Assembly: GCA_022710645.1 (NCBI GenBank)
Contig: JAKLGL010000002.1
Location: forward strand, 14,337 to 78,336
From: Patescibacteria group bacterium
GTDB lineage: Bacteria > Patescibacteriota > Patescibacteriia > Magasanikbacterales > GWA2-37-8
DNA length: 64,000 nt
Direction of reading: 5' to 3'
Shown: in pieces, positions 2,609 through 61,835 of the stretch
Numbering within the stretch: the first letter of the stretch is position 1
Layout of the letters: every line of letters starts with the position of its first letter
Notes under the pieces: model-generated
The model's input: only the letters and a program-made list of their open reading frames with translations
Databases searched by the model: none
What the model was told of the DNA's origin: nothing
Position numbers and translations under genes: made by a program

Positions 2609-4096
2609 TTATAATTTTATTTCTTTGGTTATCCCGATATTTTCCAGAAATTTTTTATCATGCGAAATTACCAACAAAACTCCTTCATAATTATTCAAAG
2701 CGCTTTCCAATTTCTCTATCCCTTCCATATCAAGGTTATTTGTCGGTTCGTCCAAAATCAAAAGTTGTGGAGGTTTATTTCCCGACAACAGACAAGCGAG
2801 AGCTGCGCGAATTCTTTCTCCCCCGCTCAAAATTTCGATTTTTTTATTTACATCAATACCGCGAAAAAGAAACCGCACCAACATTTCTTTGGAAATTCCT
2901 TCGGTCAAACCGGAAAGACGCACCATATTTGTCAATAAAGTTTCTTCTCCTTTTAGTACAGTCGTGTCTTGATCCAAATAAACGACATTTTCTACTCCGA
3001 TTTTAATTTCACCTTTTTGCGGAACCAATTGTCCGATTAATAATTTCGCCAACGTGGTTTTTCCCGAACCGTTTTTCCCGCTCAAACAAAGTCGTTCCGG
3101 TCCGTAAATTTCCAAATTAAAATCATTTAAAATCTTTTTTTCTCCGTAAGCAAAATCAATTCCGATTGCTTTTATTACCATCTTATTCTTCGGCACGTAA
3201 GTTTTTGGCAATTTGATAACAATTTCGTTTTCCGGAGATATTTGTTTTTTGATTTCTTCAACTTTTTTCGCAATTGAAGCCACTGTTTTTTGATGTGTTT
3301 TTGTCAAACGAGAAGCAGTGGCTTGCGCCGTGTCTTTCATCAAATTAAGCATGGACTTCGGCATACCTATTTTTTGTCTATCTGTAATCCCCTTTTTCAT
3401 CCTTTTTTGTTGTTTTTCTTCGGTTTTTTTCGCTTGTTTTTCCGCTTTTTCTTTTTTCTGTTTAGCGGATACGAATTGCCTTTTCAAAGCTTCTTTTTCA
3501 ACTTCTTTTTGATATTGGTAACTTTCGAAATTTCCACCATAAATTTTCAAACCTTGCGGAGTCAATTCCATAATTCTATCCATTAAGTTCAGGAGTTCGC
3601 GATCGTGACTCACTATCAACAAACCTTTTTTCCAATCTTTTATCATTTGATAAATCACTTCTTTAGACTCGGCATCCAAATTATTTGTCGGTTCATCCAA
3701 AATAATAAATTCGGGATTTGAAGATAAAATTTTCACCAAAGCGATTTTCATTTTTTCGCCTCCGCTAAGTTCGGAAATATTGCGATTAAAATCTACGTCT
3801 TCCAATTGAAATTTTTTTAATATTTTAAAATCCGGTTCATCCAAAAATTCACTAACGGTTTTATTCGTATTTAAACTGAAATCCTGAGGTAAATAAGCGA
3901 TATTTTCTCCGATTTTCAAAGAACCGTTACTCAAACTAATTTCTTTGACTAAAATTTTTAACAATGTCGTTTTTCCAACCCCATTTTCACCAACTAAGCC
4001 GGTTCTTTCTTTATCTAAACTAAAAGACAACTCAGAAAATATCCGCGTTGAATCGTCTAAACTATAGCTTAAATTGTTGACATCTATATAACCCAT
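2609..4096 (-). CDS. ABC-F family ATPase: tandem ABC domains with a K/E-rich linker (ribosome-associated translation factor or resistance type)
   Basis: Two Walker A motifs (GENGVGKTT, GKNGSGKTT), two ABC signatures (LSGGEKMKIA, LSGGERIRAA), no TM domain, charged inter-domain linker. Confidence 0.85.
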   Translation of the reverse strand: MGYIDVNNLSYSLDDSTRIFSELSFSLDKERTGLVGENGVGKTTLLKILVKEISLSNGSLKIGENIAYLPQDFSLNTNKTVSEFLDEPDFKILKKFQLEDVDFNRNISELSGGEKMKIALVKILSSNPEFIILDEPTNNLDAESKEVIYQMIKDWKKGLLIVSHDRELLNLMDRIMELTPQGLKIYGGNFESYQYQKEVEKEALKRQFVSAKQKKEKAEKQAKKTEEKQQKRMKKGITDRQKIGMPKSMLNLMKDTAQATASRLTKTHQKTVASIAKKVEEIKKQISPENEIVIKLPKTYVPKNKMVIKAIGIDFAYGEKKILNDFNLEIYGPERLCLSGKNGSGKTTLAKLLIGQLVPQKGEIKIGVENVVYLDQDTTVLKGEETLLTNMVRLSGLTEGISKEMLVRFLFRGIDVNKKIEILSGGERIRAALACLLSGNKPPQLLILDEPTNNLDMEGIEKLESALNNYEGVLLVISHDKKFLENIGITKEIKL

Positions 4097-4140
4097 AAAA
4101 AATCATCAAAAATATCACCTTGAATTATAGAATCTTTTCC

Positions 4141-4169
4141 TTGACTTAGCAAATATTTTTTGCTAAAAT
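4141..4169 (+). promoter_or_regulatory. Sigma70-like promoter upstream of tRNA-Ser: TTGACT, 17 nt spacer, TAAAAT, with a TGc extended -10
   Basis: Hexamers at 4141-4146 and 4164-4169 with 17-nt spacing. The tRNA starts 15 nt downstream. Confidence 0.5.
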
Positions 4170-4183
4170 TTCCCTACGCCTTT

Positions 4184-4276
4184 GGAGAGGTGGCTGAGTT
4201 GGTCGAAAGCGGCACACTGCTAATGTGTTGTCTCGTTCTCAAGACGGGACCCAGGGTTCGAATCCCTGCCTCTCCG
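4184..4276 (+). tRNA. tRNA-Ser (anticodon GCU), long variable arm, no encoded CCA
   Basis: Acceptor GGAGAGG/CCTCTCC, D-arm, anticodon loop CUGCUAA, long variable arm, T-loop GGTTCGAATCC. Confidence 0.9.
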
Positions 4277-4466
4277 CATAAAAAATCACCGTAAGGTGAT
4301 TTTTTTATACGGGGAGGAGAAAGCAAAAAGTTTTTCTTTCGTCGGGGTGAGAACGCCGGAGCGATATTTTATGAGCTTGTGAGCGAATAAAATCGCGAGG
4401 CGGTGGCTAGCCCGAGGAGTTGGAAAACGACGAGAGGCGAAGCCGAATCCCTGCCTGCCTCTCCGC
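4271..4466. repeat. Left copy of a roughly 195 bp imperfect direct repeat. It starts in the last bases of tRNA-Ser, includes a terminator hairpin (ATCACCGTAAGGTGAT plus T-run) and a structured segment, and ends in a second, degenerate copy of the tRNA 3' end (CGAATCCCTGCCTGCCTCTCCGC).
   Basis: Near-identical to 9232-9424 (a few substitutions/indels). Confidence 0.85.
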
Positions 4467-4513
4467 CAGATGTCCAAGTTCGAACCGAAGCAGAATAAGT
4501 GTTTTTGGACAAT

Positions 4514-4548
4514 AAAAAACCAATTTCTTAAAGAAGTTGGTTTTTTTA
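4514..4548. terminator. Bidirectional rho-independent terminator (ACCAATTTCTTAAAGAAGTTGGT flanked by A/T runs)
   Basis: Perfect 10-bp stem with U-runs on both strands; lies just downstream of the minus-strand REase gene. Confidence 0.5.
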
Positions 4549-4556
4549 TTACTATT

Positions 4557-5342
4557 TTATTGTTTCTTATTGAATCGTTTAAAATAATTATCTATCTCAT
4601 CCCTAAGTTCAATTCCTACTCGTTCAAAACAATCTAGTAAATCTTTATATGTACCCTTACCATCAAGAAAATCCCAAAATTCATCGGCTACTTTAAGCTC
4701 ATTATCTAAATCAAGCATTCCTCGCATTGTCCATCGAGTATAAGGTTCTGGTTCGTAGGGATTATATGGAATTGCGATAAATGTGTTTATGTCAGCTTTT
4801 GGATTATTTGCTAAAATCACAGCAACCCACTCAAGTAATGTTCTTTTAAACTCCTTGAATCCTCCGGCGTTAGGTTTTGCAGTTTTAATATCAAATAAAT
4901 AATAACCTCCGTCTTTTGACTCAAACATCAAATCCACTTTGGTAGGCTTTGCTTTTATCATCTCGCCAGATTGGCAAACTTTTCTTATTCGTTCTATTTC
5001 TTCTTTTTTGTTTGGTGATGTTGTCGCTGTCGTTAATCCGTCAATAATTTTCTGTATTTCTGCTTGTGCGCCAGTGCTTATCCGATCTCCGGCAGTAGCC
5101 TGACATGTAGCCATTTTGAAATTCTTTTGTGCTAGAGCCAAGCCAACTGGTTCAAAAATACTTGTTCCAAAATTAGTATTTAGAGAGTGGATAAATGAAT
5201 AAAGTGCAAGTCTATCTTTACCCAAAAGACGAGTATGGAAAGGCATCGAAGCCGGTTCCGGTTTGTAATTTTGGAATTTATTTCTGAGACTTGCTTTTAG
5301 TACATCCTCAACATTTTTAACTTGTTCTTTTGATAGTGCCAT
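4557..5342 (-). CDS. Type II restriction endonuclease, TdeIII-like family
   Basis: 261 aa. The N-terminal region (MPFHTRLLGKDRLALYSFIHSLNTNFGTSIFEPV) resembles the RE_TdeIII family from memory. Immediately downstream of, and co-oriented with, a DNA methyltransferase. Confidence 0.55.
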   Translation of the reverse strand: MALSKEQVKNVEDVLKASLRNKFQNYKPEPASMPFHTRLLGKDRLALYSFIHSLNTNFGTSIFEPVGLALAQKNFKMATCQATAGDRISTGAQAEIQKIIDGLTTATTSPNKKEEIERIRKVCQSGEMIKAKPTKVDLMFESKDGGYYLFDIKTAKPNAGGFKEFKRTLLEWVAVILANNPKADINTFIAIPYNPYEPEPYTRWTMRGMLDLDNELKVADEFWDFLDGKGTYKDLLDCFERVGIELRDEIDNYFKRFNKKQ

Positions 5343-5346
5343 AAAA

Positions 5347-6921
5347 TTATTTTGATTTAAAATGAAAAATTATTTCGGAATATGGATTCCTATCCCGTTC
5401 TGTTCGATTCAAAACAGGTCTTTTAAATTGATTTACAATCTTCATTCCAGATTTTTCAGCAATTTCTGGATAAAGATTATATTTATCGTTTGCAACAAGG
5501 AAAATATCGTAATTTTCCTTTAAATATTTCTTGCAATTATTTAGAACATCAGCTATTCCCTGAGCATATGATCTGCGAGCCTCCTGTCCTTGCCCTTTAT
5601 AAAGCGGACCGATTTCTAGATCATCCTTTCGTTTAAATCCGAGCAAATCGTAAGCATAAGCGTGTTGCTCGTGATAATCTATTTGTCCAACATAAGGAGG
5701 CGAGCAAAATATACCTGAGATTTTTTGTTTTTTAAGAATCTTTGCAAATTCCGGATTCTGCTTTTCAACTTTTTCAAAAATATCCACAGCTCTTGAATCA
5801 CCAGCAATAGCTGAGTAATGGACTGGTTTTCGCAATCTTTCAAATTCTTTTATTCTTGAAACAGTGTCGTAAGCATAGCGATTAAGCATTGTTTTGATTG
5901 AAAACAACGGCTTGCAAATCTTTTTATGCTTGTAGCAATAATATGTAGTTAATTGTGGTTCTTTTAGGGTAGCAAGATCACTATGTGTTGTAGCTCTGCA
6001 TGACCTAATTGTTCGACTTAAAATTAAAGCCAGAATCTTTTTTGTTTTTAAATCTTTCTCTTGTTTTATGGTATTGAAAACATGATCAATTTCTTTTCTC
6101 ACACTATCCATAAACCAAGTATCCAAAAATGACTCTGCTTTATCCTGTTTCAATTTTATTGAATATTTTTTAAGTAATTTTTGATAGGTAGGCAAAAACT
6201 CTTTTTCTTTCTCTGATGAAAACTTTTTTTCATCAAAATTTCCTTGGTTTATTTTGTATTTAAAATCTGAACCGGGAAAATGCTTGTTATTAAACTTTGC
6301 CAATTCTGCCAACAATTCAGTTTCAAACTCCTGGATTTTATTATCATGTTCAAAAGTATCAATAGCCGAAAGCATTTTCTTTATCGCCTTCTGTAAATAT
6401 TCATGATCGTAATTTGTTGCTTTACAACTTGCAATCATGCAATTAAATTCGGACACATCAATACCAACAGAATGAATACCCATTTCCAATGATTGGATAA
6501 TTGTTGTGCCAGAACCAAGAAAAGGGTCGAGAACTATATCACCATTTTTAAAATAAACTTCTTTTTTAAAATCATCTGTATGGGAATCAATAAAATATTC
6601 AACAAGTTGTGGAATATATTTCCCTTTATATGGATGTAATCGATGAACATGCTTTGTTGTATCTTTTTCTCTAAGATTATCGAAAGATAATGCCCAGTTT
6701 AAATCATCACCGAGTTGCTTCTTCCAATCAATCTCTCGTTTACCTTTCCATGATTCGTAATACTTTTTCAAATCATTCAAATCAATAAGGGTTGACCCAT
6801 TTTCTCCAAGTTTCTTAACCTTTCCATACTGAACAAGGTAAGAAATATTTGTTGGTGATACTTCTTTTTCAAGGTAATCCGTCGCCCATTTTGATGCTTC
6901 GTGTATTGTTACTAATGACAT
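5347..6921 (-). CDS. Type II DNA methyltransferase, amino-MTase (N4-cytosine or N6-adenine). Motif I is DPFLGSGTT and motif IV is SPPY.
   Basis: DPFLGSGTT (AdoMet binding) near residue 133 and FCSPPY near residue 400. The SPPY form favours N4C. Four-nt gap to the REase gene. Confidence 0.85.
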   Translation of the reverse strand: MSLVTIHEASKWATDYLEKEVSPTNISYLVQYGKVKKLGENGSTLIDLNDLKKYYESWKGKREIDWKKQLGDDLNWALSFDNLREKDTTKHVHRLHPYKGKYIPQLVEYFIDSHTDDFKKEVYFKNGDIVLDPFLGSGTTIIQSLEMGIHSVGIDVSEFNCMIASCKATNYDHEYLQKAIKKMLSAIDTFEHDNKIQEFETELLAELAKFNNKHFPGSDFKYKINQGNFDEKKFSSEKEKEFLPTYQKLLKKYSIKLKQDKAESFLDTWFMDSVRKEIDHVFNTIKQEKDLKTKKILALILSRTIRSCRATTHSDLATLKEPQLTTYYCYKHKKICKPLFSIKTMLNRYAYDTVSRIKEFERLRKPVHYSAIAGDSRAVDIFEKVEKQNPEFAKILKKQKISGIFCSPPYVGQIDYHEQHAYAYDLLGFKRKDDLEIGPLYKGQGQEARRSYAQGIADVLNNCKKYLKENYDIFLVANDKYNLYPEIAEKSGMKIVNQFKRPVLNRTERDRNPYSEIIFHFKSK

Positions 6922-6930
6922 AAGTTTATT

Positions 6931-7554
6931 TTAAAATTCTTTTCTTAATACTCCTACGACCTTTCCTTGAATGACAACATTTGATTCGTAAAATGGCTTC
7001 ATTGTTTGGTTTGCCGGAACAAGTTTTATCCTATCCTTTTCTCTGTATATTTTTTTGAGTGTTACTTCGTTTCTATCCGGCATATACGCTACCGCCTTTT
7101 CTCCATCATCTACTGATTGCTGATCTCTCACAACGACGATGTCTCCGTCCGATATTCCTTCTTCAATCATACTCAGACCAGAAACTTTGAGTGCGTAGTA
7201 ATCATGTCCCAGGGAAAGCATACTTCGCGGTACTTCTATTGGTTTTGGGTCGCGGATGGCTTCAATTGGACCACCAGCAGAAATAATTCCCATTAGAGGT
7301 ATCATTACTTCTGGAACCCTGTGGTTGTGCAAAGCGTTGATTGATCGTTTTTTTCCTTTATCCACCAAAAGAAGATTTTTACTTCGCAAAGAATAAACAT
7401 GCTGATGAATTGTTGGCACTGAACGCTTAAAAAACTTGGCTATTTCTACCAGTGAAGGTGAGAAACCATTTTCTTGGCGATATTCCCGTGCAAATTGTAG
7501 GATTTCGGCTTCCCGTTTTGTAGGTTTACCTATTCCAATACTTGACTTCTTCAT
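6931..7554 (-). CDS. lexA: LexA-type repressor (N-terminal winged HTH plus S24 peptidase domain)
   Basis: Ala-Gly autocleavage site in IISAGGPIEA, catalytic Ser in GLSM, Lys in VTLKKI, N-terminal HTH. Confidence 0.8.
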   Translation of the reverse strand: MKKSSIGIGKPTKREAEILQFAREYRQENGFSPSLVEIAKFFKRSVPTIHQHVYSLRSKNLLLVDKGKKRSINALHNHRVPEVMIPLMGIISAGGPIEAIRDPKPIEVPRSMLSLGHDYYALKVSGLSMIEEGISDGDIVVVRDQQSVDDGEKAVAYMPDRNEVTLKKIYREKDRIKLVPANQTMKPFYESNVVIQGKVVGVLRKEF

Positions 7555-7578
7555 ATACCTAGAATTATAATACCTAAA

Positions 7579-7604
7579 GATAACCTAAACAAGAGCGGGT
7601 TATC
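7579..7604. promoter_or_regulatory. Candidate operator: perfect 7-bp inverted repeat GATAACC-N12-GGTTATC in the divergent lexA / 7633-gene intergenic region. A TTATCCACA DnaA-box-like 9-mer overlaps its right arm.
   Basis: Inverted repeat seen directly, centred between divergently transcribed genes. Confidence 0.4.
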
Positions 7605-7632
7605 CACACTATTAATAAATTAACAAAACACT

Positions 7633-8202
7633 ATGGAACAAGACAAAGAAATTTCGGCAATGAATGAAATTATTGCCTCATTAAACAATTTGGATGATGG
7701 ACAAAGACAGAGGGTTATGAAATATGTACTTGAACGATTTGGTGCTACAACCAATTCCCTAACAAACCCCTCAACATTTTCTCCGGTGTCTCAACCCGCT
7801 CCTCAATTCGATGAACTTGGAAGCAGTCAAGCCACAAGAGTAATTGACATCAGAGCTTTTAAAGAAGAAAAATCCCCCCGTTCTGCTATTCAAATGGCGG
7901 TTCTGGTCGCGTTCTATCTCCAAGAACTAGCTCCTTCTGATGAAAGAAAAGCAACTGTAGATTCTGGAGATATAGAAAAATATTTTAAGCAAGCAAGCTA
8001 TAAATTGCCTTCTGGTAAAAATGGAGCTGCAGATACTCTCACAAACGCTAAAAAGGCGGGGTATTTAGAGATAGCTGACCGTGGTACATATAAACTAAAC
8101 CCTGTCGGATATAATCTCATCGCCCACAGTTTGCCCAATGGCGATAGCGAGCTAAGAAAAACCAGGACCAAGGTAAAAAAGGTAAAGAAAGCTAAAAAAT
8201 AG
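7633..8202 (+). CDS. Hypothetical protein, 189 aa. Possible winged-helix-like C-terminal region and a basic lysine-rich tail.
   Basis: ORF with a 2-nt gap to the downstream gene (operon). Ends KTRTKVKKVKKAKK. Confidence 0.6.
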   Translation: MEQDKEISAMNEIIASLNNLDDGQRQRVMKYVLERFGATTNSLTNPSTFSPVSQPAPQFDELGSSQATRVIDIRAFKEEKSPRSAIQMAVLVAFYLQELAPSDERKATVDSGDIEKYFKQASYKLPSGKNGAADTLTNAKKAGYLEIADRGTYKLNPVGYNLIAHSLPNGDSELRKTRTKVKKVKKAKK

Positions 8203-8204
8203 TT

Positions 8205-9017
8205 ATGGATTCTGCTAATGACAACCTAGCAGAAAAACTGAAAGCCACCGAAAAGCTACTAAAAAGAGTTAATTCAATAAAATCTAAGCAGCTCGGTTCG
8301 ACTTCGGTTAAAGATGAGATAAAGGCTTTTGTAAAAGCCTATTTTGAAATTTTACAGTCCGATTTAAAGAATCGAAATATTTCAACAGGTGATCTTGATA
8401 TTGCAATGCAAAATTTAATAACTCTTGCAAATACCAAAGCTCTCACCTCGAAGTACAAAACTCTACTCAAGAAAGTTAAAATGGAATTGGTAATAGTAGA
8501 ATCATCGGGAACATACACTAGTCGTAATAGAGACGCGGGAGTACTAAGTAATGGATATGAACAAGCTATATTGAAAATCCTAAATCAAATCGTTCCTGCT
8601 ATTGGTAATTCATATCAACAAGTTTTGAATGATCTGAATTCTCCAAGAATTTCATATAGAGGCACTGTTGCCGAAATAAGAGAGGTTTTAAGAGAAACTC
8701 TTGATTACCTCGCTCCAGATGAGGATGTCAAAAACATGAAAGATTTTAAACTTGAAAAAGATATGACAAAGCCAACAATGAAACAAAAGGTTCGTTATGT
8801 CTTGAGTAACCGAGGAAAGTCAGAAACTGCTACAAAATCTCCCGAGGATGCTGCTCATATTGTTGATGATGGTGTAGAGAGGTTGGTTAGATCAACTTAT
8901 AATCGTGGGTCGTTATCCACCCACACAACTACTTCTGACAGAGCGGAAGCATGCCAAATAAAAATGTATCTTGATACAGTTCTTTGTGAATTATTAGAGA
9001 TACATAGCAAAAACTAA
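8205..9017 (+). CDS. Hypothetical protein, 270 aa. N-terminal helical/coiled region. A C-terminal R-x5-H (RGSLSTH) may be a HEPN-like motif; this is tentative.
   Basis: ORF only; the motif was noted by eye. Confidence 0.6.
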   Translation: MDSANDNLAEKLKATEKLLKRVNSIKSKQLGSTSVKDEIKAFVKAYFEILQSDLKNRNISTGDLDIAMQNLITLANTKALTSKYKTLLKKVKMELVIVESSGTYTSRNRDAGVLSNGYEQAILKILNQIVPAIGNSYQQVLNDLNSPRISYRGTVAEIREVLRETLDYLAPDEDVKNMKDFKLEKDMTKPTMKQKVRYVLSNRGKSETATKSPEDAAHIVDDGVERLVRSTYNRGSLSTHTTTSDRAEACQIKMYLDTVLCELLEIHSKN

Positions 9018-9231
9018 GGAGCCACTCATAGTAGACGGGGTATATGCGTGACGAAAGTAAATTTACATAAAATAATCTATCTCATTCTTTCCCTTTGTTG
9101 ATTTCGGTTGAGGAACTTCAAACCATTCAGGATGTTGTTTAAACATATCTCGTAATTCTTTTATAATTGGATCAAGAGTCCAGATTGTGAACCGTCTAAA
9201 TTGCCGTTTTGGTTCTAATTTCGGGACATCA

Positions 9232-9424
9232 TCTCCGCATATAAAATCACCGTAAGGTGATTTTTTTATACGGGGAGGAGAAAGCAAAAAGTTTTGCTTT
9301 CGTCGGGATGAGAACGCCGGAGCGATATTTTATGAGCTTGTGAGCGAATAAAATCGCGAGGCGGTGGCTAGCCCGAGGAGTTGAAAAACGACGAGAAACG
9401 AAGCCGAATCCCTGCCTCTCCGCA
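9232..9424. repeat. Right copy of the roughly 195 bp direct repeat; ends in an exact copy of the tRNA-Ser 3' end (CGAATCCCTGCCTCTCCGCA)
   Basis: Alignment to 4271-4466. Confidence 0.85.
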
Positions 9425-9513
9425 TAAAAAACCTGCCTATAAAGGCAGATTTTATATTAATCTAAATAAACATTGAAACAGTCTTTTATTTAAAGTATAC
9501 TTAAAAATGCCTT

Positions 9514-15786: not shown

Positions 15787-17667
15787 TTATTCTTTATTTA
15801 ATAATTGTTCTTCAAATTCCTTTTTGGCTTTTTCAATGGCTAGTAATTGTTCCGGATTGGTGGTAACTATCTGATCTTCGAAATTAGAAGCCAAAACTTG
15901 AATACCGGCATGTTTACTCCCAGCAAAGAAAATACCTTGACCGACGGAAGAATTTAATAAAAACATCCTCTCACTATCGGTTAAAGCAAAAGACTTTTGC
16001 ACTAAATCTATGGCTGTCGGAGACTGTTTGAGCAATAATTGCAAAGCGGAATTGGTAACAATCGGCTGTCCGTATTGAGAACGTAAAAAGTCGTTAACAT
16101 CTTGAGTAATAGTGGTTATACCGAGATAATATTTACGACAACGTTTCACTAAAGCGAAGATAAAACTCGCGCTATCCTCTTGTTGCATCAACCACCAGGC
16201 TTCGTCTATCACCAAAATCCTTTTCTTGCGTTCCGAGCGAACTATATTCCAAATAAAATTAACAATAGTATAAATGGCCATTGGACGAAGTTCGGCTTCC
16301 AAATCACGAACACCAAAAACCATCAATTGATTATTCAAATCAACATTGGTCGGAGAGTTGAAAAGCCCGCTAAATGTGCCTTCGGTAAATTTATTTAATT
16401 TCAAAACCAGCTCTTCGGAATTGGTCATCCCCTCCAAAACTTCCTGTAAATCTTGCATGATAGGAGCTTGTACAGTATTCAAATCCGCATCTCGAGTAAT
16501 ATCTTTTTTGGCGTAAGTTTCCAAAAGAGCTTTATCAATAACGGAATCTTGTTGAGTGGTTAAACCGCCAAGCATAATTTTCAATAAACCTTTCACGGTA
16601 ATAATGGCGCTACGTATAACATCTTCAGTGCTCATTTCCAAATTTCCCGTTTGTTTTGGTAGATCAAACGGATTAATTTTCGCTTCCGAAGACAAAGAAA
16701 TATTCACGTAAGTTCCGCCGACAGCGTCACACAGATGTTTGTATTCCATTTCCGGATCTATAACTATAATATCTACCCCCATCATGAGCGAGCGTAATAT
16801 TTCCAATTTTATCGCATAACTTTTACCCGCGCCCGAACTGGCAAAAACCACCATATTGGCGTTTTGCAAAGAAAATCTGTCAAAAACTATCAAGCTGTTA
16901 TTGTGTAAATTGATACCGTAAAAAATCCCATTGTCGGAAGTAAGTTCGGCGGAAACAAACGGAAAAGATGCGGCTATAGGCGAAGAATTCAAGTTAAAAG
17001 GAATATACAACTCATCGTTACAAATCGGTAAAGTGGAATTAAAACCTTGCTCAGCTTGATAAAAAACCTTATGAGTGATGATGAGTTTTGAACCAAAAAT
17101 ACCTTCCACATCTTCTGAAAGTTGATCTAATTCTTTTTTATCTTTGGCATAGAGAGTAACATAAAAACAAAATTGAAAAAAATGTTCGGTACCTTGCGTC
17201 AGATTGTCGCGTAATTGTTCAATATCCCTCAAAGCGGTCTCGCGTAATGGGTCGCGCGGAGCGCCTTTTTCTCTATCAGCGCTCAATTGAGCTTCCAAAG
17301 CTCCAACTTTATTTTTCAACTGTTTCAAAATAACCGCTGATTTAACCGGATAAAAAAACATACCGATATCCATGGTTGAAGCCAGATTAATAACCGGCGA
17401 ACTCCAACCGATACTGATATAACGAGGATAAGCGGAAATAAAAATCGTTCGGCAATAAATGTCTCCCAATTGCAAAAAACTACTTTCAACTCTGAAAGCT
17501 GCCGGAGATATCAAATCACGAATGGAAACTTCGCTTTCCCGATAAACTCTTTCTTCCTGCAAAGTCAACAATTCCTCCTCTACTTTTTTCTTGAGTTGAC
17601 CCTGCTCTCTTTCGTAAATGGTAGTTTGATTTTTTTCTATTTTTCCGCTTATTGGTTTGAAAGCCAT
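15787..17667 (-). CDS. virB4: VirB4/TraE-family type IV secretion ATPase (Gram-positive PrgJ/TcpF-like)
   Basis: Walker A SSGAGKS, Walker B ILVIDEAWW, N-terminal LQLGDIYCRTIFISAYPRYISIGW motif typical of VirB4/TraE. Confidence 0.85.
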   Translation of the reverse strand: MAFKPISGKIEKNQTTIYEREQGQLKKKVEEELLTLQEERVYRESEVSIRDLISPAAFRVESSFLQLGDIYCRTIFISAYPRYISIGWSSPVINLASTMDIGMFFYPVKSAVILKQLKNKVGALEAQLSADREKGAPRDPLRETALRDIEQLRDNLTQGTEHFFQFCFYVTLYAKDKKELDQLSEDVEGIFGSKLIITHKVFYQAEQGFNSTLPICNDELYIPFNLNSSPIAASFPFVSAELTSDNGIFYGINLHNNSLIVFDRFSLQNANMVVFASSGAGKSYAIKLEILRSLMMGVDIIVIDPEMEYKHLCDAVGGTYVNISLSSEAKINPFDLPKQTGNLEMSTEDVIRSAIITVKGLLKIMLGGLTTQQDSVIDKALLETYAKKDITRDADLNTVQAPIMQDLQEVLEGMTNSEELVLKLNKFTEGTFSGLFNSPTNVDLNNQLMVFGVRDLEAELRPMAIYTIVNFIWNIVRSERKKRILVIDEAWWLMQQEDSASFIFALVKRCRKYYLGITTITQDVNDFLRSQYGQPIVTNSALQLLLKQSPTAIDLVQKSFALTDSERMFLLNSSVGQGIFFAGSKHAGIQVLASNFEDQIVTTNPEQLLAIEKAKKEFEEQLLNKE

Positions 17668-17676
17668 ATTTTTTGA

Positions 17677-18360
17677 TTAAGATTCAACCCTCATATAATC
17701 CACTGGCGCCAAAGGCTGATTTTGCGCAATATCCGGATTATAAGTAGAATAATATAATTCAATCAATGCTTGAGTATCCAAGCGTATAACATCAAGATTC
17801 ATCCCGGACAAACCGGCTTCTATCAATCTAACTCTGGCATCCAATTCTCCTTTTCTTTTTTTGAAAGTTTCTTCTTTCAAACGAATCAAATTTATCGGAT
17901 TCAAAGCATCGCCCAAACGAGACCAAAAACTTTTTTTCTTGTTAGTCATAGGATCGTAAGGCACCACAACATAAAATTGTTTTGAAGTGATATTACGCAA
18001 AGTCACCGTCTCATTGATAAAAGATATATAATCGGATATCTGGGCTTTCAGCAATTCGTTTTCTATCTGCTCCCGACGAGCTTGCAATGTCTCCATATAG
18101 GGCCTGATATTGAGTTGTCGAGATTGAATACAAATCTGCAAAGGGTGATCCAGAGAATTCAAAAACGAAACATAGGAAGAAATTATAGCCTGCTGTTCTT
18201 CTTCGTTGAGCAAACCGAAATTAACGCTACTAACCATCAATACCGCTCTTAAAGTACCGTCTTTCATCACCACAGTGTCATTCTTGACTTCCGAAATCGG
18301 CACATGAGCCTGAGAATTCGGTATACTTTTTTTCTTTTTTATCGATTGTTCGTTTTTCAT
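17677..18360 (-). CDS. Hypothetical T4SS-associated protein (227 aa)
   Basis: ORF between the PrgI-like and VirB4 genes with tight spacing. Confidence 0.55.
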   Translation of the reverse strand: MKNEQSIKKKKSIPNSQAHVPISEVKNDTVVMKDGTLRAVLMVSSVNFGLLNEEEQQAIISSYVSFLNSLDHPLQICIQSRQLNIRPYMETLQARREQIENELLKAQISDYISFINETVTLRNITSKQFYVVVPYDPMTNKKKSFWSRLGDALNPINLIRLKEETFKKRKGELDARVRLIEAGLSGMNLDVIRLDTQALIELYYSTYNPDIAQNQPLAPVDYMRVES

Positions 18361-18365
18361 AATTT

Positions 18366-18803
18366 TTAAATATTTTTTTCCTCCGGACCGTAATAACCTC
18401 CGGTATTAACTGCCAAAGATAGTTGCCTGATTCTGCTTCGGCTTATTTGAGGCGCGATTTGTTTTTTGGCCATAACCGGCAATTTGTGCAACTCTTGAAT
18501 AGATTTCAATTCCGCATCAGTATAACGTCTATCCCAAATACGTAAACTCGGCCGACGTAAAGTTTGAAAAATATTCAACAAAAAATAATGAAATGGCTGC
18601 CCGTTTATTTTCACAAATGCCAAAATTAAAGCCGAACCGCCAATAAGACAAAGTAAAAAAATAAACAAAGCCGTATCGGCCAATTTGTAAGCCACAAAAA
18701 TAACCAGAGAAGCGGTCAATAAAATCACAAACTGTCTGGTGGTAACCGGACCGATAATTTTATCTTCTACATCTATAAATTGCGGCACGACAAATTGATC
18801 CAT
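18366..18803 (-). CDS. PrgI/VirB3-like small membrane protein
   Basis: N-terminal VPQFIDVEDKIIGPVTTRQF followed by two TM helices, a pattern typical of PrgI-family proteins adjacent to VirB4. Confidence 0.6.
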   Translation of the reverse strand: MDQFVVPQFIDVEDKIIGPVTTRQFVILLTASLVIFVAYKLADTALFIFLLCLIGGSALILAFVKINGQPFHYFLLNIFQTLRRPSLRIWDRRYTDAELKSIQELHKLPVMAKKQIAPQISRSRIRQLSLAVNTGGYYGPEEKNI

Positions 18804-53919: not shown

Positions 53920-53971
53920 TTAAAATCTTGACATTTAATAAAAGACTTGTTATAATAATCTTCGTTAATTT

Positions 53972-54043
53972 GGCCTCATCGTCTAATGGTTAGGACACCA
54001 CGCTTTCAATGTGGTAATAGGGGTTCGATTCCCCTTGGGGCTA
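53972..54043 (+). tRNA. tRNA-Glu (anticodon UUC), no encoded CCA
   Basis: Cloverleaf: acceptor GGCCTCA/TGGGGCT (two G.U pairs), D-arm GTCT..AGGAC, anticodon loop CTTTCAA, T-loop GGGGTTCGATTCCCC. Confidence 0.8.
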
Positions 54044-54194
54044 CGGGCAAAATAAAGAACCAGCGTTTTAGCTGGTTTTTTGTTTTGTCCGTATTTGTCC
54101 GGGGAATCGAAGGGTGCGAATGAGCAAGGAGCGATAGCGACATAGCGAGATGACGAAAATATATCAGTGACATATTTTCGGGCACCCCGGACGC

Positions 54195-54211
54195 GATTCC
54201 CCTTGGGGCTA
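54195..54211 (+). repeat. Exact 17-nt copy of the tRNA-Glu 3' end (GATTCCCCTTGGGGCTA), 168 nt downstream of the original. The intervening 54044-54194 is a GC-richer hairpin-rich segment.
   Basis: Exact match between 54027-54043 and 54195-54211. Confidence 0.85.
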
Positions 54212-54293
54212 CAAATAATAAAAAGATTTGATTTCAAACCAAGTCTTTTTATTATATTAACAAATACTTTATTCTAGAGTATTATATCCCCAT

Positions 54294-54878
54294 ATGATAG
54301 AATCCAACCAGGAATACGAAAAACAAACATTTACCGGCTTGAATTTATCCTCAGCTAAAATAAATTCCAGTATTTTTACCGCCTGTATTTTTAAAAAATG
54401 CAATTTCTTTCAATCCAATTTATCTAATAATTCTTTTATTGATTGTTCTTTTGTCGATTGCGATATTAGTATGACGACACTCAAAGAAACACATTTTAAT
54501 AACACTACTTTTAAAAACTGTAAACTGATGGGAAATAATTTTGAATTTTGCAGGATTGATTTCAGTTTCTCGGCAAATTTTCTTAGTTGTGTTTTGGAAT
54601 TAACAAATTTTGGCGGAGTAAAAATGCATGGAGTTAGTTTCAAAGGTTCAAATTTAAAAAAAGCCGGTTTTATCAGAGCTAAACTGACAAAATGCGATTT
54701 TAGCGAATGTGATTTTGAAGAAGCGGTTTTTGATGTCGCCGATCTTACCGAATCCGATTTTAGACAAGCATTTAATTACGCTATCGACCCGAACAAAAAT
54801 ATTTTGAAAAAAGCGATTTTCTCCATGCCGGACGTCGTCGGTTTACTGAGATATCTAGATATTAAAATCGAAAATTAA
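54294..54878 (+). CDS. Pentapeptide-repeat protein (Qnr/MfpA/McbG-like fold)
   Basis: Tandem A(D/N)LxX-type pentapeptides throughout (CDFSECDFEEAVFDVADLTESDF and similar). Confidence 0.75.
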   Translation: MIESNQEYEKQTFTGLNLSSAKINSSIFTACIFKKCNFFQSNLSNNSFIDCSFVDCDISMTTLKETHFNNTTFKNCKLMGNNFEFCRIDFSFSANFLSCVLELTNFGGVKMHGVSFKGSNLKKAGFIRAKLTKCDFSECDFEEAVFDVADLTESDFRQAFNYAIDPNKNILKKAIFSMPDVVGLLRYLDIKIEN

Positions 54879-61638: not shown

Positions 61639-61712
61639 GTCAGGGTAGCTCAGTTGGTGAGAGCGAAGGATTCATAACCCTTAGGTCGGGAGTTCGACTC
61701 TCCCCCCTGACA
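61639..61712 (+). tRNA. tRNA with anticodon CAU (elongator Met or lysidine-Ile2), no encoded CCA
   Basis: Acceptor GTCAGGG/CCCTGAC, D-arm TAGCTCAGTTGGTGAGAGC, anticodon loop TTCATAA, T-loop GGGAGTTCGACTCTCCC. G1-C72 is paired, so it is not an initiator. Confidence 0.8.
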
Positions 61713-61835
61713 CTTCTGTCCACCCCGTCGCCCCGGTCTCGGACACCTGCGGTTTCCGACGGTCGCTAGCGCTCCCTGCCTTCCACCATCGGGGTGTCCA
61801 GCCGTCCGCCTACGGCGTCCGTATTTTGTAAACTG
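61713..61835 (+). other. GC-rich (about 65-70%) highly self-complementary element between tRNA-CAU and the tsaD start, in an otherwise roughly 35% GC locus
   Basis: Base composition and complementary segments (GGACACC/GGTGTCC, CCCCG/CGGGG, CCGACGG/CCGTC) read directly. Confidence 0.5.

Follow-up and report, generated by a model that had tools for sequence, protein, structure and literature searches.

RtT-like candidate trailer modules behind tRNA-Glu and tRNA-Ser genes in a Patescibacteria genome

The tyrT locus of Escherichia coli contains 178-bp repeats, each of which holds the last 19 nucleotides of tRNA-Tyr. These repeats (RtT) became known in E. coli in the years 1978-1991 and, to our knowledge, no mechanism has been put forward for them; Rfam treats RtT as a gammaproteobacterial curiosity. 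Another E. coli RNA, 3'ETS-leuZ, is a functional tRNA trailer/spacer RNA that tRNA processing enzymes cut out of a precursor, and it is not known to contain the tRNA 3' end in both sense and antisense orientation. The rtT RNA has been described as being released from the tyrT transcript (PMC3318445; bioRxiv 10.1101/2024.07.17.603846), and Northern signals have been reported for RtT RNAs encoded beside tRNA-Asn and tRNA-Lys genes in Actinobacillus (PMC4986893).

In the E. coli tyrT/tyrV loci, four RtT units are recognized by the Rfam model RF00391 with scores of 133-138 bits. Each starts with a box, GGGGAAGGAT, that is the reverse complement of ATCCTTCCCC in tRNA-Tyr, continues with an interior and a linker containing GGAGCGAAGCGACG, and ends with a copy of the tRNA end, ATCCTTCCCCCACCACCA. 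The closing helix of the RF00391 consensus consists exactly of the box paired with the copy; the acceptor 3' strand remains outside it and forms a tail. In E. coli, the annotated rttR RNA begins 8 nt beyond tyrV, and its 3' boundary coincides exactly with the CCA of the tRNA copy, which fits processing by the tRNA 3'-end machinery.

The stretch of DNA analyzed here, referred to as the window, is 64 kb long and comes from a Patescibacteria group bacterium; HU homologues put it near Magasanikbacteria within the Patescibacteria. Behind its tRNA-Glu and tRNA-Ser genes lie elements composed of an antisense 5' box, variable GC-rich hairpins, a purine-rich linker, and a sense copy of the tRNA 3' end. 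Like the E. coli units, the Glu and Ser elements of the window, and all nine matches to a search pattern described below, are located directly 3' of a tRNA gene and on the same strand. In both systems the final ~19 nt of the neighboring tRNA are repeated at the end of the unit, the 5' box is complementary to the T-loop/T-stem part of the copy so as to give a closing helix, a purine-rich linker with GGAGCGAAGCGACG or GACGAG stands right before the copy, the length is 110-160 nt, and tandem arrays are formed. They differ in that the tRNA hosts are Glu and Ser here and Tyr in E. coli, in being found in Patescibacteria, Clostridia, and other groups as opposed to Gammaproteobacteria, in having an intrinsic terminator between tRNA and module in most cases outside E. 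coli, and in their interiors, which are unrelated; the tpr-like open reading frame is missing from the modules, and the Rfam model is blind to them. Our preferred reading, to which we assign a probability of about 0.6, is that the Glu and Ser elements are RtT-like tRNA-trailer RNA modules, and RtT itself seems to be part of a class that is spread across bacterial phyla. One of two suggestions made in a first-pass annotation of this DNA, a native class of tRNA-trailing structured RNAs, thus comes close to the evidence, the design accompanying tRNA-Glu in several phyla and tRNA-Tyr in E. coli.

Anatomy of the tRNA-Glu and tRNA-Ser loci

Three tRNA genes, Ser(GCT), Glu(TTC), and Met, are present in the 64-kb window, and Rfam at its gathering thresholds yields only these. 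The plus strand of the Glu locus carries, in order, a promoter, the tRNA, a terminator hairpin (T1), a GC-rich segment, a copy of the tRNA end, and a second, A/T-rich hairpin. The promoter (53928-53956) is of the form TTGACA-17-TATAAT with a TG extension and matches the consensus at 12 of 12 positions; no other promoter-like site was seen upstream of the module, and none that would serve the module separately. The gene for tRNA-Glu(TTC), at 53972-54044 (ARAGORN; Rfam tRNA score, 63 bits), is followed by T1, a terminator made up of a long hairpin and a T run, which occupies 54044-54091 between the tRNA and the module. The 5' box of the module, GGGGAATCGAA (54101-54111), is the reverse complement of the T loop and the 3' strand of the T stem (TTCGATTCCCC) and can form 9 bp with the 3' copy or 11 bp with the tRNA itself. 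The interior, designated type A (54112-54193), comprises a GGGTGC/GCACCC helix, the motif GGAGCGATAGCGAC (54128-54141), a CGAAAATAT/ATATTTTCG hairpin (54154-54180), and the linker CGGACG. The 3' copy (54194-54212) extends from T-loop position 56 to 1 base beyond the discriminator, and behind it an imperfect A/T-rich hairpin with a T run (54213-54255) was judged by eye to be a second terminator, although the terminator scan did not call it.

The first-pass annotation had correctly noted that the end of tRNA-Glu recurs at a spacing of 168 nt, but the exact repeat is 19 nt rather than 17 nt in length: CGATTCCCCTTGGGGCTAC is found at 54026-54044, the 3' end of the tRNA, and at 54194-54212, and nowhere else in the window even when three mismatches are allowed. 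With 0.01 matches expected by chance, the repeat is far beyond coincidence, as had been supposed. The segment between the copies is indeed richer in GC (46-47%) than the window (36%). Of the two hairpins that had been proposed within it, that of CGAAAATAT with ATATTTTCG stands, being kept in two relatives (L005 and L006) with one compensatory change of T-A to C-G and one repair of A.C to G-C, whereas for the other, GTCCGGGG (54097-54104) is complementary to CCCCGGAC (54185-54192), but the helix that is conserved in the family is formed by GGGGAATCG (54101-54109) with CGATTCCCC (54194-54202).

A gene for a 194-residue pentapeptide-repeat-like protein (54294-54878) lies between the Glu module and an ABC-F gene. 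It is missing in L003 and L004, and L030 has a DUF5652 gene in its place, indicating that the content directly behind the Glu module varies.

The Ser locus has the same layout, as the first-pass annotation had stated, and its features are also on the plus strand. The tRNA-Ser(GCT) gene (4184-4277; ARAGORN and Rfam) is followed by its T1, ATCACC gtaa GGTGAT with a T run (4278-4309; judged by eye), and by a module (4310-4466) consisting of a box, a hairpin, an inverted T box, interior hairpins, a linker, and the 3' copy. Here the inverted copy of the tRNA is in two parts, CGGGGAGG and GGGATGAGAAC: the 5' box CGGGGAGG, which pairs with CCTCTCCG, is followed by the hairpin and then by the inverted T box, GGGGTGAGAAC. 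The linker is ACGACGAG, and the 3' copy (4444-4466) is 23 nt long, including a 4-nt duplication of GCCT, and ends in CCGCCA. A second block at 9232-9425 on the same strand, composed of TCTCCGCAT, T1, the Ser module, and an intact 3' copy (9405-9423; the match to the tRNA end is 19-27 nt), is 97% identical to the first. No further copy of tRNA-Ser was found in the window. The second Ser block had been overlooked previously, as had the inverted T-loop/T-stem copy at the 5' end of every trailer and an element beside tRNA-Met that is considered at the end of this article.

The two Ser blocks are separated by a 4.75-kb island (4467-9231) that begins at the 3' copy of the first module. Its genes encode a TdeIII endonuclease, an N4/N6 methylase, a LexA-like S24 protein, a 189-residue protein, and a 270-residue protein resembling pPIWI-associated nucleases, and its ends are marked by an inverted repeat, GATGTCC (4469-4475) and GGACATC (9224-9230), adjoining a shared TCTCCGC. 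No integrase or recombinase domain was detected among the island proteins or within ~20 kb of tRNA-Ser, and no integrase was found among the neighbors of tRNA-Glu. In the simplest history of the Ser locus, the 23-nt repeats underwent unequal crossover, which duplicated T1 and module in tandem, and the island then entered the middle copy. Exact-protein look-ups from this locus returned only near-identical strains, all of which bear the island. Type IV secretion-like genes (VirB4/TraG-like P-loop, TraC-like, and PrgI-like) are present at 15787-18803, 6-9 kb downstream of the Ser locus; these Pfam labels are taken from the gene table of L011.

The units, of 170-190 bp, enclose no open reading frame. 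Small open reading frames were considered as candidate genes and rejected, since none is conserved and those on the minus strand overlap the tRNA. The two minus-strand frames at 53983-54237 (84 residues) and 4286-4477 (63 residues) run over both tRNA and module and are spurious; equivalents have been called as genes in public contigs, for example as an 86-residue gene in L003 and L004. The repeats are of practical concern: they break metagenome assemblies, give rise to spurious frames such as these, and mimic island att sites in island-finding software.

Design and distribution of the family, and its relationship to RtT

Genomes and contigs were searched with the pattern GGGGAATCGAA-N75-105-ATTCCCCTTGGGGCTA, which makes no demand that a tRNA be present. 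Four matches were obtained in species-representative genomes (a Kerfeldbacteria member, a Clostridia MAG, a member of the Christensenellaceae, and a MAG labeled Gammaproteobacteria) and five in metagenome contigs. All nine lie 21-51 nt behind an intact tRNA-Glu. Their interiors are entirely different, and what they have in common is the architecture and the purine-rich linker. There were no matches to the Glu pattern in viral contigs, and an origin of the modules from phage was rejected on this basis.

From these and the other loci, the family can be described as follows. The module is about 110-160 nt in size and is encoded just 3' of the tRNA on the same strand. The box is antisense to the T loop, the 3' strand of the T stem, and the start of the acceptor 3' strand; it differs according to the tRNA (Glu, Ser, or Tyr), and because it changes along with the tRNA, the pairing is kept. 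The linker is rich in purines and has the form GGAG..GACG (GGAGCG..GCGACG), and the sense copy starts at T-loop position 56-58 and reaches the discriminator or slightly beyond, continuing through CCA where this is encoded in the gene. Among 12 independent module types, 8 have GACG within the 28 nt that precede the copy, as compared with 1.8 expected. Constraint therefore falls on the ends and the linker and not on the interior. Local alignments of modules gave z-scores of 5.7 for the type A module of the window with module F of L029, 12.6 for module C of L022 with L029 F, and 8.2 for L029 F with module D2 of L028; in each case, none of 500 shuffles reached the score.

The relationship to RtT is seen in the same regions. 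The linker of E. coli RtT1, ending in GGGTGAGGAGCGAAGCGACGAATA, matches that of L029 module F, ending in GGGCAAGGAGCGAAGCGACGCGGA, at the same position, and AGGAGCGAAGCGACG is common to the two (local alignment z of 6.1, none of 500 shuffles reaching the score). The Ser module and RtT have GG(G/A)TGAGAAC in common. RF00391 (gathering threshold, 45 bits), when applied at E ≤ 10, gave no match to the modules of the window, to 13 related loci, or to the most similar module, and the case for homology therefore rests on the design and on short motifs. With the design found next to tRNAs other than tRNA-Tyr in Patescibacteria, Clostridia, and further lineages, an oddity of one species becomes a rule that is open to searching.

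Several other identities were considered. Permissive scans of the three trailers and the 13 related loci with Rfam revealed no credible family. ARAGORN finds no tmRNA or tRNA-like gene, and a G3.U70-like pair in the closing helix of the Ser module is not conserved in L050. A hammerhead-like reading of GAUGAGAA...GAAAC was also set aside, as no ribozyme model matched. Derivation of the interior from the tRNA is borne out for E. coli RtT1 alone (z about 3) and fails for the modules of Patescibacteria. As a separate observation, the ylbH leader (RF00516) gives weak full-length matches, of 19-24 bits against a threshold of 50, to type B modules in L003 (2582-2708), L005 (2909-3034), and L033 (1985-2110).

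In L027 (1011-1262), the module follows a tRNA-Glu(CTC) that has a C49-G65 pair, whereas its copy has T65, and the same module and downstream DNA follow tRNA-Glu(TTC) in L025. A copy need not, therefore, be a local duplicate; either the module has moved between tRNA genes or the assembly has joined two contexts.

Polymorphism of the modules among relatives

Comparison of related strains shows that the modules are polymorphic. Among contigs encoding an identical HU protein, tRNA-Glu is followed by type A alone (the window and L001), by type B alone (L002-L004), or by A and then B in tandem (L005 and L006), where type B differs strongly from type A. In contigs in which HU is 88-91% identical, a third type, F, is present (L030-L035), and type B is found behind the same terminator in L033; in L036 and L039 there is no Glu module behind tRNA-Glu. 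The upstream side of tRNA-Glu is also subject to rearrangement, as indicated by L002, a strain with identical HU, in which genes for a response regulator and a PAS histidine kinase (3341-5466) are situated between HU and tRNA-Glu. T1 is orthologous across the relatives while the module behind it differs, so that the variable unit extends from box to copy and does not begin with T1. At tRNA-Ser, two contigs that encode the same ABC protein differ similarly, L050 having T1 and a module and L049 having neither; the two diverge exactly from the 3' end of tRNA-Ser, and both sides of the unit differ.

These observations bear on the second suggestion of the first-pass annotation, that the layout represents att-site scars. 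According to this interpretation, the units are remnants of small integrative elements, each of which entered the 3' end of a tRNA gene by site-specific recombination, bringing a replacement end and leaving the displaced one behind, and the loci do resemble the displaced tRNA 3' fragments found at the ends of genomic islands (Islander, PMC4383910) in having a direct repeat downstream of an intact gene and in forming tandem arrays; one copy here is, in addition, the junction of the 4.75-kb island, whose inverted 7-bp arms surround the shared TCTCCGC. Foreign-looking DNA flanked by direct repeats of the tRNA 3' end, arrays of different units in L005 and L006, the break in synteny between L049 and L050 at the very end of tRNA-Ser, the T65 of the L027 copy where the adjacent tRNA requires G65, and the resemblance of L003 and L005 to empty and occupied sites (L003 looking like L005 minus T1, type A, and copy) can be cited in favor of such remnants. 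However, there is no integrase in or near any unit, the pattern is without matches in viral contigs, and differing trailers stand behind a conserved T1. Moreover, conservation of the size of 110-160 nt, the inverted 5' box, and the linker motif reaches from Patescibacteria to E. coli, which would not be the case for random deletion remnants, and a conserved internal design with an inverted copy of the target, common to E. coli RtT, distinguishes the units from island ends. We therefore regard scars as a distinctly improbable origin of the units, but the part of the suggestion that sees the copy of the tRNA end as a recombination site is upheld. That the duplicated end also serves as a substrate for recombination is clear from the arrays, the losses, and the island junction. 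At the DNA level, direct repeats of 19-27 nt would permit unequal crossover and hence the formation of tandem arrays and the loss and swapping of modules, and they would offer a second copy of a favored integration target, at which the 4.75-kb island may have landed.

The first-pass annotation had also envisaged, as a case against its own proposal, a relative that keeps the trailer and has lost the duplicated 3' end, and such cases exist. In L030, L033, and L034 the 3' copy is truncated or decayed though the trailer is kept, and the copy is thus not strictly maintained everywhere.

The polymorphism is also relevant to the idea that the modules are a selfish DNA hairpin element of the REP or MITE type, noncoding, palindromic, and without RNA function of its own, that is mobile or spread by recombination, homes to the 3' ends of tRNA genes, and has terminal inverted repeats matching the tRNA. 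Inverted repeats of up to 16 nt form the ends, which are conserved while the interior is highly variable; relatives have type A, B, or F at one and the same site, following an orthologous terminator; and presence or absence of the module differs among strains with identical neighboring proteins. Divergence between L030 and L034 is ~7% in the module and in the flanking noncoding DNA alike, near the neutral rate. Hairpins with a GAGGAGCGAAGCGACG loop and covarying stems are, in addition, found in unrelated viral contigs with no tRNA near, and rtT has been likened to BIME-type repeats (PMC2965389). Against this, the only target-site duplication to be seen is the tRNA copy itself, a transposase is lacking in the vicinity, the modules occur within the 64 kb only at tRNA genes, G.U pairs are conserved and the fold of the sense strand is the more stable one (see below), and the members of the family in E. 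coli and Pasteurellaceae are stable RNAs with defined ends (PMC4986893). A selfish element is, in our assessment, an unlikely explanation, though better placed than scars, and we proceed from the interpretation of the modules as RtT-like trailer RNAs.

Predicted folding and transcription of the modules

The closing helix is present in the minimum-free-energy folds of 14 of 15 modules and also in alignment folds. The sense strand folds better than its complement in 13 of the 15, with a mean advantage of 4.8 kcal/mol, and two G.U pairs are invariant on the sense strand in six copies of type B. The hairpins of the modules keep their pairing through compensatory changes.

A strand-specific fold could also be of significance in DNA. 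In the attC sites of integrons and the attP hairpin of CTX phage, a folded single strand serves for attachment, and the modules share with these an imperfect palindromic structure with conserved ends or base, a variable center, a stem resembling the target (here, the duplex of T arm and acceptor), a length in the attC range, and arrays behind one anchor site. A recombinase would, on this hypothesis, use the stem to place cassettes behind the tRNA; the wobble pairs are strand-specific, and one "cassette" that carries genes lies between two modules. There is, however, no integron-type or other recombinase nearby, nearly all units are gene-free, and the E. coli relative, RtT, is documented as an RNA product. 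A role as a folded attachment site is consequently very improbable.

As an RtT-like RNA, the module would be transcribed by read-through of the first terminator from the strong tRNA promoter, giving a transcript that includes it. Pairing of the box with the copy would close the module and leave a single-stranded tail identical to the acceptor 3' strand of the tRNA. Maturation of tRNA 3' ends may then also set the 3' end of the module and produce a discrete RNA, as for E. coli rtT; such an RNA, which we infer here from the anatomy of the loci, would be freed from a tRNA precursor by tRNA processing in the same way as 3'ETS-leuZ. Since the Patescibacteria loci have a strong T1 and show no separate promoter for the module, the levels of the RNA may be low. 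The RNA reading is also weakened by the divergence of L030 and L034, about equal in module and flanks, by the truncated or decayed copies of some lineages, and by the relatives that have no module (L036 and L039 for Glu, L049 for Ser).

In Glu modules located directly behind the tRNA, the box is complementary to the tRNA over 11-16 nt and to its own copy over only 5-12 nt. Precursors consisting of tRNA, spacer, and module were folded for eight loci from Patescibacteria, Clostridia, other MAGs, and E. coli, and in every case the predicted free energy is 8-19 kcal/mol below the sum for the parts folded separately. The lowest-energy fold of each of the six precursors inspected is "swapped," with the box paired to the T loop and 3' strand of the tRNA and the copy paired to the 5' acceptor strand; this is a thermodynamic prediction that ignores co-transcriptional folding and the tertiary structure of tRNA. 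The box may thus capture the T loop and 3' strand of the tRNA in read-through transcripts while the copy pairs with the 5' acceptor strand, an arrangement that would explain why both sense and antisense copies are kept. Two ideas are opened by these models, that tRNA processing may define the 3' end of the module and that the box may swap between tRNA and copy. A more far-reaching proposal, which we consider doubtful, is that the modules might constitute a pan-bacterial device, a second and switchable tRNA 3' end that could act as a cis-regulator or in quality control of tRNA maturation.

Two further elements have features in common with the modules. Abutting tRNA-Met (61639-61713) is a GC-rich (72%) element at 61714-61830, the minus strand of which shares GGTG.GAA.G.GCA.GGAGCG.TAGCGAC with Glu module A (29 columns, z of 5.2) and folds well (z of -3.0). 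Neither of its ends is derived from tRNA-Met, and its sequence suggests a relative of the modules that is orphaned or inverted, in opposite orientation.

The hairpins in the viral contigs L053-L060 (for example, at 6770-6815 of L054), which have no tRNA near them, are small and of the form ATTSN-GAGGAGCGAAGCGACG-NSAAT-CC with covarying stems. A literature search for the linker sequence found nothing annotated, and the same was true of a plasmid BLAST search with a related small hairpin. The GAGGAGCGAAGCGACG 16-mer of the viral hairpins is also the 16-mer in the linkers of E. coli RtT1 and L029 module F, and these hairpins may represent a widespread repeat with a core common to RtT.
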